A stretch of 64,000 nt of DNA from Eledone cirrhosa (lineage: Eukaryota): positions 77,438,001 to 77,502,000 of the forward strand of contig OZ024741.1 in assembly GCA_964016885.1 (NCBI GenBank), read 5' to 3'. Below are positions 12,234 through 62,003 of this stretch, piece by piece. A program made the translations under genes and the position numbers. Positions within the stretch are counted from its first letter, which is position 1; every line of letters begins with the position of its first letter. Below the pieces are notes generated by a model. The model was not told the origin of the DNA. It made no database searches and saw only the letters and a list, made by a program, of their open reading frames with translations.

Positions 12234-12583
12234 TAATGTATAATAAACAATACAATATAATTACCTCATTACCAGAGGTTTCCCGAATAAGACGAATACA
12301 AGAAACGTCCTCATTCGTTCGTCAGACAAGGCAATTTAAAACATAGTGAAATATTTTAAAAATCTCCTCAAGCAAATTTTTCAAATATTTCACTATGTTT
12401 TAAATTGCCTTGTCTGACGAACGAATGAGGACGTTTCTTGTATTCGTCTTATTCGGGAAACCTCTGGTAATGAGGTAATTATATTGTATTGTTTATTATA
12501 CATTAAATATTTAGCTCTGTAACTTACATAGAGCACTCTTCACTCCTATGACTTTTTCAATTTTCAACGGAAACTTCAATACT
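12234..12583 (+). mobile_element. Fold-back mini-element in (TA)n carrying an HHR
   Basis: Inverted arms 12234-12363 and 12375-12505, then an unpaired tail of about 80 nt. Confidence 0.85.
12403..12480 (+). ncRNA. Type I hammerhead ribozyme (mirror copy 12259-12336, - strand)
   Basis: aattgccttgt-CTGACGA-a-cgaatgaggacg..cgtcttattcg-g-GAAA-cc tct gg-TA-atgaggtaatt: 11-bp stem I with wobbles, long stem II, 3-bp stem III, GUA cleavage site at 12467-12469. Confidence 0.75.
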
Positions 12584-12729
12584 TATATATATATATATAT
12601 ATATATATATATATATATATATATATATATATATATATATATATATATATGTTATACTTTGGGAGGGTCATGTTGCCAATAAATTCAGAAACAAAATATA
12701 TATATATATATATATACACGTATATATAA

Positions 12730-13110
12730 AGTCCTCGTGTATGGTCAGCTTAGCAGCGGCAACAGGTAAGTTGGCAGACTACGATATCAAATCTCACTGC
12801 TCTTGCAATCTATTTCCGTGATTGCGAACAAATTGCTGATGACAGAAAGGACTGGAGAGAAAGGTGCCATAGTGCGATCAAGGGCTTTGAATCCAGTCGC
12901 ATGGAGAAATTGCGTGTTGACCGAACAGGGACGAAGCAACGGGCCTTGATACCTGCAAGACTGTCCATAAACTCTTGCTCTTGCGACCTATGAGGCTTGG
13001 TCTGTGGGTCACTGGCGGGGTTGAAATGTCACATGAGATGCCGCCATCCAGAGAGCTGAACTTTTGTTGGACACTCATACGTCGGATATCGACGGGAGAG
13101 AGTCCATCAT
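12730..13110 (+). mobile_element. RTE LINE 3' fragment
   Basis: CEQIADDRKDWRERCHSAIKGFESSR...CDL*GLVCGSLAGLKCHMR followed by an RTE-type 3' terminus. Confidence 0.75.
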
Positions 13111-13115
13111 ATATA

Positions 13116-13340
13116 TAACAAAGAAGGTATGGTAAGATACCAGGTGGACCATAACACACCAGAGCACTCGATACTTAGGGTAGTAGAGTGGGTAATAGTG
13201 AAAAAATCAGGACCCCGACGGCTGAACTCCGGCCGTTTCGACAGCTAGATCCGAACGAATCTAGCTGTCGGATCCTGTTCGGATCTAGCTGTCGAAACGG
13301 CCGGAGCTCAGCCGTCAAGGTCCTGACTCTTTTCCCATAT
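13116..13340 (-). mobile_element. Fold-back mini-element (family shared with 16290 and 29016)
   Basis: Palindrome about 13200-13336; tail 13116-13195 matches the reverse complement of 16400-16478. Confidence 0.85.
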
Positions 13341-14011
13341 ATATATATATATATATATATATATATATATATATATATATGATAAATTTAAATTTATGTC
13401 TGTATATATACAGCGCAGAAGTAACAATGACTGCATAAATGTGTAATTAATTTATAGATTTAGTATATAGACATGTAGCTATGTAAAATTGTGCATACTT
13501 CCCTGTAAATTGGACAACCACAGGGAAAGACGTAAGTGAGGGGCTTACATACTCTATCACTTATAGTAGTATCCTGAAGTGGACGTACTCATTTGCAGAC
13601 TATTAACGCTCATGCTGGAAGTTAATTTTGATATATTATATGATATACATATCTTCTGATGAAAAACACAAAAGGTTCGAAAATCGATTCTAGGCATTTA
13701 TCATGTTTTTAATTTATAGGGAAGTATGTAAAATTAGGCGTGTTTATATGTCTATATATTAAATGTGTAAATATATATGCATATTTACACAGTCTCGCTT
13801 ACCTCTCCACTGTATATCAATGGACATATATCAATCTTTGTGACCCTGAAAGGATATCATATACCTTGCCTTTCCTCCTTTGTACACGGTGATAGAAAAG
13901 TAACTCCATGTTGAATACCGAATGATACCTCACCATGCTGCAAGATGAAATCTGGCTAGTTATCTGTACTTGGGAGAATATTGAAGATTTGATTTTGCTA
14001 TTATTGGCTGA

Positions 14012-14390
14012 ATACCCACTTTCCTGGGAGATGGATGGGTCGTCGTGGTCCGCATGAGTAATCAGCCAGAAGCCCTGACTTAACACTCTGCGACTTTTTT
14101 CTTTGGGATCGGTTAAAGGAGCAAGTCTACTCTACCAAACCAACGACTTTGAAAGAACTTGAAGGGCGAATACGAGAAGTTGTCTTCCATCCCACAAGAG
14201 TTCCTGGTGAAATCAGTTGATGCGTTTCCCGGGCAGCTTGAAAAGCTGGTGGCGAACGCTGGTACCCATATTGAATTTTAAATAAAACTCCGTGCAATAC
14301 GCTTTCTTCTTATTCATTTCTTGTAAAACTTATCGTTAAAAAATAAATTATAAGAATTTTAAAACAGGGAGTTACTTTTCAATCACTGTA
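14012..14390 (+). mobile_element. Tc1/mariner transposase C-terminal remnant with right end
   Basis: GRWMGRRGPHE*SARSPDLTLCDFFLWDRLKEQVY...GTHIEF*; ends ...cactgTA. Confidence 0.8.
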
Positions 14391-14762
14391 CATACCAAAG
14401 AACGAGTCCTGTACGTCGTAGTAGGTCGTGTTAGAATTAGCAACGAAATTTTACTCAAATCATACTCTTTTGTGCTGTTATCCGAACATTGCCGAGTACT
14501 CCTGCTAGTAAGATATAAAAAGTAAAGTGTTTATTGAATCAAGAAGTGAAAATTAAGGTTTATGGTTTGTTGTTAGTACGTACAGTAATATTTGCTGTCT
14601 AACTCAACTGGATGTCAGATGATGACAATGAAACAATGATGGTTACGACACCTTTATTAGTTTATTCTTTTACTTGTTTCAGTCATTAGATTGCAGTCAT
14701 GCTGGGACACCACCTCGATGGTAGCACAATTTTTTATCTTTTTCTTTCTTTTTTTTCCACAG

Positions 14763-59822: not shown

Positions 59823-59980
59823 CACGCCATGCTTTCCAGCATACTTACGTTCCTTTACGATCTGAGTTCAAATCCCGCCGAGGTTGACTTTGCCTTTCAT
59901 CCTTACGGGGTCGATAAAATAAAGTACCAGTAATGAACTGGGTTATTGCTGGCCTTGTGCCTAAAGTAGAAACAAATATT
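59823..59980 (+). mobile_element. 5'-truncated SINE
   Basis: B box + Nin core + 3' end. Confidence 0.88.
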
Positions 59981-60057
59981 ATATTATAAAATTAAATCAA
60001 ATTATTTAGCACTACAAGTGAAGTCATTCTTTTCCTTTTTTTAATATATATATATTT

Positions 60058-60840
60058 CTGCTGCTTAACCATTTTGTTTGTTTACCCTAGCGTCCCCTTT
60101 ATTTACGTGTCCCAACGACTTTTTTTAGCCGTTGCTCGCACCAACCTGAGGTATATGGCCTTTAATGCGACGAAATGCCTACGACGGTTGGATGGCCACT
60201 GATGAGGACAAACTTTTTCATATGTAACCCATTTGCAGCGCCGCAGCTCCATTATTATCATATTTACACATATATTTTTTCCTCCGCTGCCACCAGTCTG
60301 TTTCGTTCTTTGTGTATTTACCCTTTCTAGCAGTCTCTCTCTCTGTTAGCCTCTTCCTCACCTTTCACTCACTCACTCTCTGTCACTACCTCTCCTCCTC
60401 CCCTTTCTTCCCGTTTGACCTGTCCGTAATCCTTTTCTCGCGGGCACTTGACCAAGCCGGTATGAATTTTTTTCTCTCTCTCGTCTGCGACTTCACAGAA
60501 CTTATGTTTACCGAATTCGCAGACCAGACCCCTTCTTCCTCCCGTTAGACCTGTGCGAAATTCCTTCCTTGCTCACATTTCAACCAGGTTTGATGGTCTT
60601 TATTCTCTCGTTCACGATTCCACCGAATTTATATTCATAGAAATCTGGGACTTGTTTCCTTCTTCATCACTTTCTGCTGCTTAAACCATTTTGTTTGTTT
60701 ACCCTAGCGTCCCCTTTATTTACGTGTCCCAACGACTTTTTTTTAGCCGTTGCTCGCACCAACCTGAGGTATATGGCCTTTAATGCGACGAAATGCCTAC
60801 GATGGTTGGATGGCCACTGATGAGGACAAACTTTTTCATA
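60058..60840. repeat. Partial tandem (period about 615 nt) non-coding repeat in (TA)n
   Basis: 60058-60220 is repeated at 60674-60840. Confidence 0.85.
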
Positions 60841-60866
60841 TATATATATATATATATATATATATA

Positions 60867-61245
60867 GGAGGAAGTTATAGTTCACTTGAAGCATTGTGTA
60901 ATGAGGTATAAACGTTTGTATTTGTAAAGCCAAAACAATGCAGGTATGGACATAGAATATAAATGCAAATGCAAAAGATATTGTTGACAATTAGTCTTTT
61001 ACCTTAAATTTATTTAAATGTCCTTAATTTTCGAGATAATATCTCTTCTTCGGAGGGAGGTAAAGCGGTTAAACCAATGTTCTAAATAGCTTTACTTCCC
61101 TCCGAAGAAGATATATTATCTCGAAAATTAAGGACATTTAAATAAATTTAAGGTAAAAGACTAATTGTCAACAATATCTTTTGCATTTGCATTTATATTC
61201 TATGTCCATACCTGCATTGTTTTGGCTTTACAAATACAAACGTTT
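60867..61245 (-). mobile_element. Fold-back element with C4-variant HHR pair (61022-61056 -, 61099-61133 +)
   Basis: cct-CCGAAGA-a gagat att atctc-GAAA AT TA-agg; arms about 160 bp; tail 60867-60905. Confidence 0.8.
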
Positions 61246-61261
61246 ATATATATATATATAT

Positions 61262-62003
61262 ATGTAAGTATGTATACATACATACATACATACATACATA
61301 TATGTATACAGACGTACAGTAGTATGTATATATATACATGCACACATATATATATGTACGTATGGGTTTACCGAACATTTATTATAATGCTCGGTTTGTT
61401 TGTAAACAAACAGCTCGAATTACGCCGTACAGTGTTCGGCAACCATCGTCGCCTTTTTGTTCAACACTGACACGGGAACGATGTACTAGTTTCAAGCTTA
61501 TTAGCTATCGTCAGCATCGTATTCCTTCCTGTCAGATGATTGAACGTTTGAAAGTATATACTTTCCTTATGCATATTAACTCCTTATGCATATTAACTCG
61601 ATATGCAAATTAGGCTGCTCAGCCATTAATATGCATAAGGAAAGTATATACTTTCAAACGTTCAATCATCTGACAGGAAGGAATACGATGCTGACGATAG
61701 CTAATAAGCTTGAAACTAGTACATCGTTCCTTTGTCAGTGTTGAACAAAAAGGCGACGATGGTTGCCGAACACTGTACGGCGTAATTCGAGTTGTTTGTT
61801 TACAAACAAACCGAGCATTATAATAAATGTTCGGTAAACCCATACATACATATATATATGTGTGCATGTATATATATATATATATATATATACATACTAC
61901 TGTACGTCTGTATACATATATGTATGTACGTATACATACTTACATTTAAATATGAGCCTTACTAAGAGTGAGAAATGAAATTTCGTTTCATTCTTTTCCA
62001 TTT
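61262..62003 (+). mobile_element. Fold-back copy of the 428-nt HHR family (HHRs 61479-61519 -, 61686-61726 +)
   Basis: Arms about 61262-61579 and 61626-61944, tail to 62003; cgatg-CTGACGA...GAAA CTAG TA-catcg. Confidence 0.88.

Follow-up and report, generated by a model that had tools for sequence, protein, structure and literature searches.

In this study we analysed a 64,000-nucleotide stretch of the Eledone cirrhosa genome (assembly GCA_964016885.1, contig OZ024741.1, positions 77,438,001 to 77,502,000; hereafter the window), which carries 14 fold-back insertions, six of them with a strict type I hammerhead ribozyme in each arm. We propose that such insertions are probably products of endonuclease-bearing Penelope-like elements (PLEs), each arising when a single RNA is reverse-transcribed twice by target priming, and that a non-coding family among them, family B, likely borrows the PLE protein in trans. 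The fold-backs and the hammerheads are of known kinds; what is likely to be new is genomic evidence suggesting that PLEs mobilise retrozymes, which we have not found in print. In the literature that we searched, with subscription papers and supplements mostly outside reach, we found no account of retrozyme insertion geometry, of PLE twin priming or of octopus hammerheads. Both the formation of PLE inversions and the mobiliser of animal retrozymes are stated as open in the accessible parts of recent papers (PMC8557442; PMC7229834; bioRxiv 10.64898/2026.07.22.740005).

Fold-back insertions and hammerheads in the window

An original prediction, made from the sequence alone, had listed at least 13 long inverted repeats, most of them sharing one layout. 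By self-comparison we recovered all of them at the same places, and they number 14 when those at 54630 and 54760 are counted separately (Table 1). The paired arms are 47-305 nt long and 92-99.6% identical. The layout, described as flanking (TA)n with an unpaired tail of about 25-100 nt, was confirmed. Each fold-back does have an unpaired outer tail, on one side only, with lengths of 24-129 nt (80-88 nt in family A, 58-64 nt in family B; the others in Table 1), and (TA)n runs flank most of them; within such runs a target-site duplication would look the same as its surroundings. The flanks deviate at 16290, which lies within a long interspersed nuclear element (LINE) and is bordered by just TATC/TA, at 13112, where the left side has only a few TA, and at 54560, with (GT)n at the left. 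A 74-nt palindrome at 15142-15215, absent from the earlier list, has neither hammerhead nor tail.

Hammerheads were detected with a type I structure descriptor that allowed U3-A8 and U4C cores; a stricter first version gave 8 motifs only. We observed 14 strict motifs in the window, against a mean of 0.05 in 60 and of 0.1 in 40 dinucleotide shuffles (maximum 1), and the core CUGANGA/GAAA/UH was found with its three stems and with covariation. Twelve of these motifs form six opposite-strand pairs and two, at 30202- and 61053-, are alone. Six more, judged by eye, are decayed or weak (21538+ and five included in Table 1), so that the predicted figure of about 20 hammerheads from at least nine families is a fair one. 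Family A has half a motif only in the window, and no hammerhead was seen in the fold-backs at 24222 (J), 24433 (K) and 54761 (H). The motifs of a fold-back are on opposite strands, which means that within a single transcript neither can serve as the dimer partner of the other. With Rfam, Hammerhead_1 matched at 30164-30208 with 29.1 bits, below the gathering score of 34, and family B gave no match; the 150 matches listed, of 274 in a scan of the whole window, were all miRNA-family noise. A three-copy repeat (96-266, 60055-60230 and 60671-60844) has GAAA before CUGAUGA on the + strand, i.e. in permuted order, and does not pass the type I descriptor.

Short inverted repeats at TA-rich sites look like miniature inverted-repeat transposable elements (MITEs), and contigs from four public sequencing runs over 16130-16640 are too short to span the element found there. 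That the palindromes are assembly artefacts or MITE-type DNA transposons is nevertheless very improbable: the two arms have a mean divergence of 3.0% (134 of 4516 sites), the same unequal ends with variable centres are found at hundreds of loci with unrelated flanks, and the arms grade into multi-kb copies bearing a reverse transcriptase (RT), as in locus L468. Whereas a MITE has equal terminal inverted repeats and a fixed interior, here the ends are unequal by a fixed tail and the centre differs in each copy. In annotation, such hairpins should be read as PLE ends and not as MITEs or miRNA precursors.

Links of the families to autonomous PLEs

The PLE origin put forward in the original prediction is supported by longer genomic copies. 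Followed upstream in these copies, families C, E, F, G and I lead to predicted open reading frames (ORFs) with RT and GIY-YIG domains, which identifies the families, as far as sequence can tell, as 5'-truncated autonomous PLEs and not as protein-less families. A single ORF combining RT with a C-terminal GIY-YIG domain was found for these five and for families M and N, whose ORFs lie in the window itself. A protein search gave 33 homologues, with names that point to no particular PLE clade (Penelope/Poseidon, Neptune, Nematis or Hydra). The idea of protein-less products holds for the non-coding family B; most of the other families lack a protein by truncation only.

For family C, the GIY-YIG frame lies directly upstream in five loci (L133, L134, L172, L194 and L226), and the predicted connection of one family to a GIY-YIG end at 25378-25940 was borne out by a C-type endonuclease match on the - strand (25797-25928, tblastn E 1e-5). 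In 14 of the 30 loci of family I, the upstream sequence matches PLE proteins, and an RT frame of 810 aa is present between tandem copies. By tblastn on 30 loci of family F, no consistent PLE match was obtained within 1.5 kb; a 770-aa RT-GIY-YIG frame, with RVT_1 and GIY-YIG both above the Pfam cut-offs, has its end 1.04 kb upstream of the family in L403, and in L341 this frame end recurs at 1.02 kb. The endonuclease end of family E is about 1.5 kb upstream in all three longer stretches, on the same strand in L470 and L471, while in L472 the GIY-YIG domain lies 1.5 kb before the end of the far arm. An RT-endonuclease lies about 2.7 kb upstream of family G in one of two longer stretches, the two-armed copy L468. 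For family D, a GIY-YIG end was seen about 1.2-1.3 kb upstream in two loci (L180 and L284), and an RT-GIY-YIG parent is probable. The search for autonomous ORFs, which had been proposed as a check, was thus successful for C, E, F, G, I, M, N and probably D; no RT-GIY-YIG ORF was found for A, B, H, J and K, and the parent elements of H, J and K were not traced.

Family N is young: the 150 scored copies have 97-98% protein identity, with open frames of up to 1217 aa. As reported for rotifer PLEs, its short end and tail, as seen in the window fragments, correspond to the first codons of the ORF (L406). The 1217-aa frame (L406:1346-4996, - strand) lies in a partial tandem.

Family B, a putative non-LTR retrozyme

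Family B has a unit of about 422 nt (about 484 nt in a subfamily) with one hammerhead each, and occurs as monomers and as seamless head-to-tail arrays with periods of 420-426 and 484-502 nt and up to about 40 units. In a doubled unit, the longest ATG frame on either strand is 51 aa. The monomer is predicted to fold with -149.6 kcal/mol (z -7.46), and none of 100 shuffles was equally stable. At the third pair of stem I, 122 contexts have U-G (88), A-U (14), G-U (13) or C-G (3), and only 4 are unpaired; between subfamilies, 40 of 43 core positions agree, versus 218 of 268 in the flanks, although in dead copies the core is not kept significantly better (see below). By its unit, its hammerhead, its lack of coding capacity and its self-pairing, family B fits the definition of a non-LTR retrozyme (LTR, long terminal repeat), and among the window families it is the only one that these data indicate to be a non-autonomous unit. 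Its tandem nature had been missed by the original prediction.

We mapped family B in the window, in 46 other stretches and in one long array, covering the first 100 of 6,262 genomic places with the tail pattern; after two local duplicates had been dropped, 24 distinct two-armed insertions were retained. Counted from the cleavage site, the outer ends are at unit positions 216 and 275: 14 of the 24 have one arm at 216 and the other at 275, and none has both at 216. The arms measure 0.2 to 10 units, those of 1.2-2.6 units being common. Since arms start 216 or 275 nt past the cleavage site and continue over several units, the template was probably circular or an uncleaved multimer.

Units within one arm differ about as much as units of the two arms do in most two-armed arrays, e.g. 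0.06% within versus 0.09% between arms in L199 (3.7 and 5 units) and 5.4% versus 4.4% in L134, which argues that multi-unit arrays were mostly made at insertion. One could instead see in family B the solo pseudo-LTR (pLTR) of an autonomous PLE, grown into arrays by local unequal crossing-over and never moving as its own unit. Local amplification of this type is discussed in the accessible text of a recent preprint (bioRxiv 10.64898/2026.07.22.740005), and would suit the A/B dimer arrays of L197 and L132, with their young lag-2 identity, as well as the existence of an 18-kb array of about 40 units. However, none of the B arms that we examined has an ORF upstream, dozens of unrelated loci show the unit joined to itself without a seam, many arms are 1.2-2.6 units long, and in L199 both arms are multi-unit and almost identical. 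We give this explanation a small chance.

In the two arrays just mentioned (L197:815-5127 and L132:1843-3773) the alternation is strict, neighbouring units being 3.3-4.6% and alternate ones 0.3-0.6% apart, and every second ribozyme is altered, in stem II in L197 and in stem I in L132. We had taken them as the record of a dimer circle, which is unsupported; the repeats of L197 are younger than the insertion. The 18-kb array (L200-L201, G000:C1 at about 51.772-51.790 Mb) is satellite-like, its B-type units showing about 4.5% divergence.

Arm geometry and the case for two primings on one RNA

Across hundreds of loci with unrelated flanks, the centres of the fold-backs are variable and the outer ends fixed. 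Besides family B, two outer ends were observed in families F, I, E, G and N and in family A, where four sets of about 30 loci place them at +22 and +100 relative to the cleavage site. The insertions are head-to-head inverted, 5'-truncated copies with a one-sided tail. In hand counts over the first 100 listed places, the order was minus-plus in 19 pairs of family G within 500 nt, versus one plus-minus pair, and in 17 pairs of family F within 1.6 kb, versus none. That the common geometry records priming, as stated in the original prediction, is supported.

As proposed for rotifer PLEs, a single cDNA, or an antisense RNA, could fold back and copy itself into the second arm; self-priming on an antisense template is put forward in the available portion of PMC3846280. 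This would explain why variants are common to both arms and why centres often fall at natural hairpins, such as the hammerhead stem II in family A or a 16-nt palindrome in L121. The copied arm must then be nested in its template, whereas the tail-less arm extends further 5' in 10 of the 14 B insertions with both standard ends, by up to 680 nt, and likewise in the window in F (319 nt) and B (267 nt). Family A copies with a longer tail-less arm include L028, L033, L040, L036, L045 and L085, and in the last three the arms scarcely overlap. Moreover, most B junctions join two 5' ends that have no relation to each other. We consider such a snap-back quite unlikely, and our initial idea, in which stem II primed it, was dropped because of the non-nested arms.

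The arms of one insertion share their variants: within B insertions they differ at 6 of 106 non-CpG polymorphic sites, while different insertions differ at 1044 of 2405 (43%). Taken together, the lack of nesting and the common variants make two primings on a single RNA, uncleaved or circular, more likely than a snap-back. The cDNA also passes the cleavage site: of about 80 arms, none ends exactly there. Two primings on two RNAs, held by a protein dimer and coming from one source locus or one multimeric transcript, would account for overlapping arms without strand displacement; the PLE protein is a predicted dimer in the part of PMC11167929 available, and a few insertions have mixed haplotypes (L134, L135 and L186). 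Free pairing among the thousands of B sources would however give about 43% discordance where 6% is observed, and a strict sorting by source would be required, which leaves this possibility unlikely in our opinion.

With two primings on one RNA, the preferred reading, the insertion may proceed as follows. The GIY-YIG domain would nick both strands of a (TA)n run; one strand would prime at a distal start of the RNA, the other 24-129 nt further upstream at a proximal start, and the distance between the two makes up the tail. Both cDNAs would run 5' through the intact hammerhead site and stop independently, often at ribozyme stems, the downstream RT presumably displacing the upstream cDNA, before the two cDNA ends are joined head to head with an overlap of 0-5 nt. 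Family B would likely be moved in this way by a PLE protein acting in trans, on a circle or an uncleaved multimer. More tentatively, and as something short of an even chance, family B might be an active, ribozyme-processed RNA circle on which the PLE protein carries out rolling-circle reverse transcription from two fixed starts at once, the second RT displacing the first cDNA. If so, the B insertions would be a direct genomic record of animal retrozyme movement and of PLE inversion formation.

Several points weigh against the proposal. No PLE ORF was found joined to family B among 341 loci, so that its link to PLEs is drawn from the common geometry and its partner PLE is putative; family A has none in at least 490 nt of common, non-tandem upstream sequence. 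Ten of the 24 two-armed B insertions have one non-standard end, and one of these ten, L193, has both near the long end. In L197, alternate units are 0.55% apart and the short arm is 1.8% from them (7-8 of 433); this array has therefore expanded or been homogenised since it was inserted. L195 is uneven too (1.7% versus 0.3%). In 26 dead B copies, the core (2 of 260 sites changed) is not kept significantly better than the flanks (62 of 3326). Gene conversion between arms could be an alternative source of the common variants. Finally, five distinct arms end 5-17 nt after the cleavage site, about 3 being expected by chance; a cleaved linear template could have produced these ends.

The genome offers thousands of young copies, on which the two inversion models predict opposite outcomes. 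Frames of up to 1217 aa are open in a young autonomous family, and the starts are mapped on a non-coding substrate of 422 nt, which would make both the formation of PLE inversions and the mobilisation of retrozymes testable in vitro.

Family A ribozyme and 5' ends

The three family A copies of the window (13112, 16290 and 29017) retain the 3' half of the hammerhead only. We observed that longer genomic copies have the complete ribozyme: its U3-A8 core lies 86 nt upstream of the cleavage site, stem III is GC-rich with 4 bp, and stem II contains a long insert. This ribozyme is predicted to fold as a three-way junction and to act as a monomer, and three pairs of stem II are compensated between two subfamilies (L050 and L079). 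The 5' ends of family A cluster 24-57 nt upstream of the cleavage site, in stem II (loci L061-L090 included), and in family G most pairs are just 42-78 nt apart. The 5' ends of A and G thus pile up at the ribozyme, as if the RT stalled on the folded hammerhead.

Comparison with known systems

Inverted truncated copies, tails and a microsatellite bias have been described for PLEs (Craig et al. 2021, PMC8557442; Arkhipova et al. 2013, PMC3846280). Insofar as these sources could be compared, the insertions resemble the units of endonuclease-bearing PLEs in their RT-GIY-YIG ORF, pLTR hammerhead, head-to-head inverted 5'-truncated copy, one-sided tail and (TA)n preference. They differ by tails of 24-129 nt instead of the 30-40 usually cited, by untranslated regions (UTRs) that reach 1-2.7 kb from ORF to hammerhead, and by non-nested arms, which speak against the self-priming model of 2013 (PMC3846280).

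In vitro, the lizard PLE Poseidon of Anolis (PAc) nicks and extends both target strands, works on uncleaved RNA and starts at two sites, between which the tail lies (Frangieh et al. 2024, PMC11167929). Our insertions agree in all these respects: two RT starts bound the tail, both target strands appear to prime, and the RNA would be uncleaved. The accessible text of that paper contains no analysis of how the arms of genomic copies relate to each other. Compared with PAc, TA here follows each of the two start sites in the template; together with a (TA)n target, this suggests a short pairing.

In L1 twin priming, both target strands prime on one RNA and the resulting inversion is joined by microhomology; the position of the second start varies, and there is hardly any overlap between the two cDNAs. 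The present insertions, in contrast, have two fixed starts and, in general, overlapping cDNAs.

Opposite-strand hammerhead pairs 100-700 bp apart are known in schistosomes (Cervera and De la Pena 2014, PMC4209133), and the minimal PLE hammerheads presented there, in the part available, share with ours the type I fold, the tiny palindromic stem III, the extra base before stem II, the U3-A8 core variant and this spacing of pairs. Unlike them, families E and I have U4C as a family state, and family A combines U3-A8 with its GC-rich 4-bp stem III and long stem II insert. Cleavage of hammerheads as dimers is covered in a 2019 review.

Cervera and De la Pena (2020, PMC7229834) regard PLEs as a strong candidate for the mobilisation of retrozymes, and Li, Clavereau and Pollet (2026, bioRxiv 10.64898/2026.07.22.740005) argue for PLE mobilisation from co-occurrence and pLTR trees, leaving the mechanism open. 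Family B is like the metazoan non-LTR retrozymes of these two sources: its tandem units are non-coding, measure a few hundred nt, pair extensively with themselves and contain one type I hammerhead each; it has thousands of copies, and PLEs are the proposed mobiliser. To the co-occurrence, shared ribozyme type and pLTR trees on which those papers rely, as far as their accessible text goes, family B adds the footprint of PLE integration: two fixed starts, a tail, an inversion and a TA target. In the main text of a 2026 repeat annotation of Octopus vulgaris, the word 'ribozyme' is absent.

Abundance in the genome

The headline of the original prediction, a dense set of ribozyme-bearing fold-backs, is a known pattern, correctly seen and somewhat over-read. 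As background we scanned in the same manner 410 kb, made up of 41 stretches of 10 kb chosen at round coordinates with more weight on large contigs, and observed 42 hammerhead motifs and 37 fold-backs; eight neighbouring stretches (80 kb) gave 6 motifs and 3 fold-backs. The density of the window is above that of arbitrary stretches, by about twofold only (14 motifs per 64 kb versus 42 in 410 kb), and is not exceptional. Exact full-core patterns have 23,644 matches genome-wide for B, 10,256 for F and 2,463 for I, and patterns without the CUGANGA half 27,663 for G and 476 for E; reversed control patterns have none.

Scaled to a genome of 3.0 Gb, this gives a coarse estimate of about 3 x 10^5 hammerhead motifs, one per 10 kb. 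If true, this number would exceed any count in the literature that we compared, and by far the 4,000-9,000 per genome cited in the available part of PMC4209133. About one fold-back per 11 kb would also make a large potential source of double-stranded RNA in introns. The arbitrary stretches (L271-L310) contain many more hammerhead families with long stems I and II, and with the palindromic stem III cores TATATA, TGCGCA and TGATCA.

Features of the window

The fold-backs and PLE fragments of the window are listed in Table 1. The family C fold-back sits in the internal (TA)5 of the family N UTR (region 57692-58420) and interrupts N, which resumes at about 58420 up to its long end. TA runs at PLE ends may be targets for other PLEs, which would explain the clusters at 23.7-25.9 kb and 60.8-62.0 kb.

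Table 1. Fold-back insertions and PLE fragments in the window (the sign after a hammerhead position gives its strand)
Feature	Position	Strand	Hammerheads	Tail	Other
Family D fold-back	12236..12583		12325-, 12414+ (one per arm)	80 nt, right
Family A fold-back	13112..13337		GAAA-stem III-UC half only	Tail arm on -
Family A fold-back	16290..16480		Half hammerhead	81 nt, right	Inside LINE
Family E fold-back	23713..24145		U4C, 23797-, 23929+; ACAATTGT stem III	129 nt
Fold-back J	24222..24410		None seen	78 nt, left
Fold-back K	24433..24674		None seen	24 nt, left
Family F two-armed insertion	24763..25364		U3-A8, 24932-, 25260+; ACCGGT stem III	65 nt, left
Family C-type PLE end	25380..25940	-	Decayed, 25601-, in UTR	Present	Last codons of GIY-YIG ORF 25797-25928
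Family A fold-back, second subfamily	29017..29216		Half hammerhead	80 nt, right
Family B retrozyme insertion	29255..30102		29494-, 29801+; ACTAGT stem III		- arm 527 nt, 1.2 units, end at 216; + arm 315 nt, end at ~275
Family M PLE	30120..33448	-	30202-		Broken ORF end with GIY-YIG domain 33448-31962; 1.76-kb UTR
Family G fold-back	54560..54746		Decayed, 54683-, 54691+	75 nt, left
Fold-back H	54761..54930		None seen	31 nt, right
Family N PLE	55596..58684	+	Weak, 57651+, in UTR		Frameshifted RT-GIY-YIG ORF 55596-57411
Family C fold-back	57702..58410		57898-, 58161+	55 nt, right
Family I fold-back	60867..61244		U4C, 61053-, AATT stem III; partner 61101+ damaged in stem II	About 40-44 nt, left
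Family B retrozyme insertion, third subfamily	61263..62002		61514-, 61691+	58 nt, right

An assembly gap, a run of 200 N, lies at about 3390-3590. The window also contains LINE ORF remnants at 8900-9559, 16453-17622, 38577-39943, 40819-42120 and 42911-44605, with RVT_1 and zf-RVT domains in 42911-44602, and a dispersed SINE-like family (SINE, short interspersed nuclear element) of about 190 nt, with one copy at 4716-4904 and others elsewhere.

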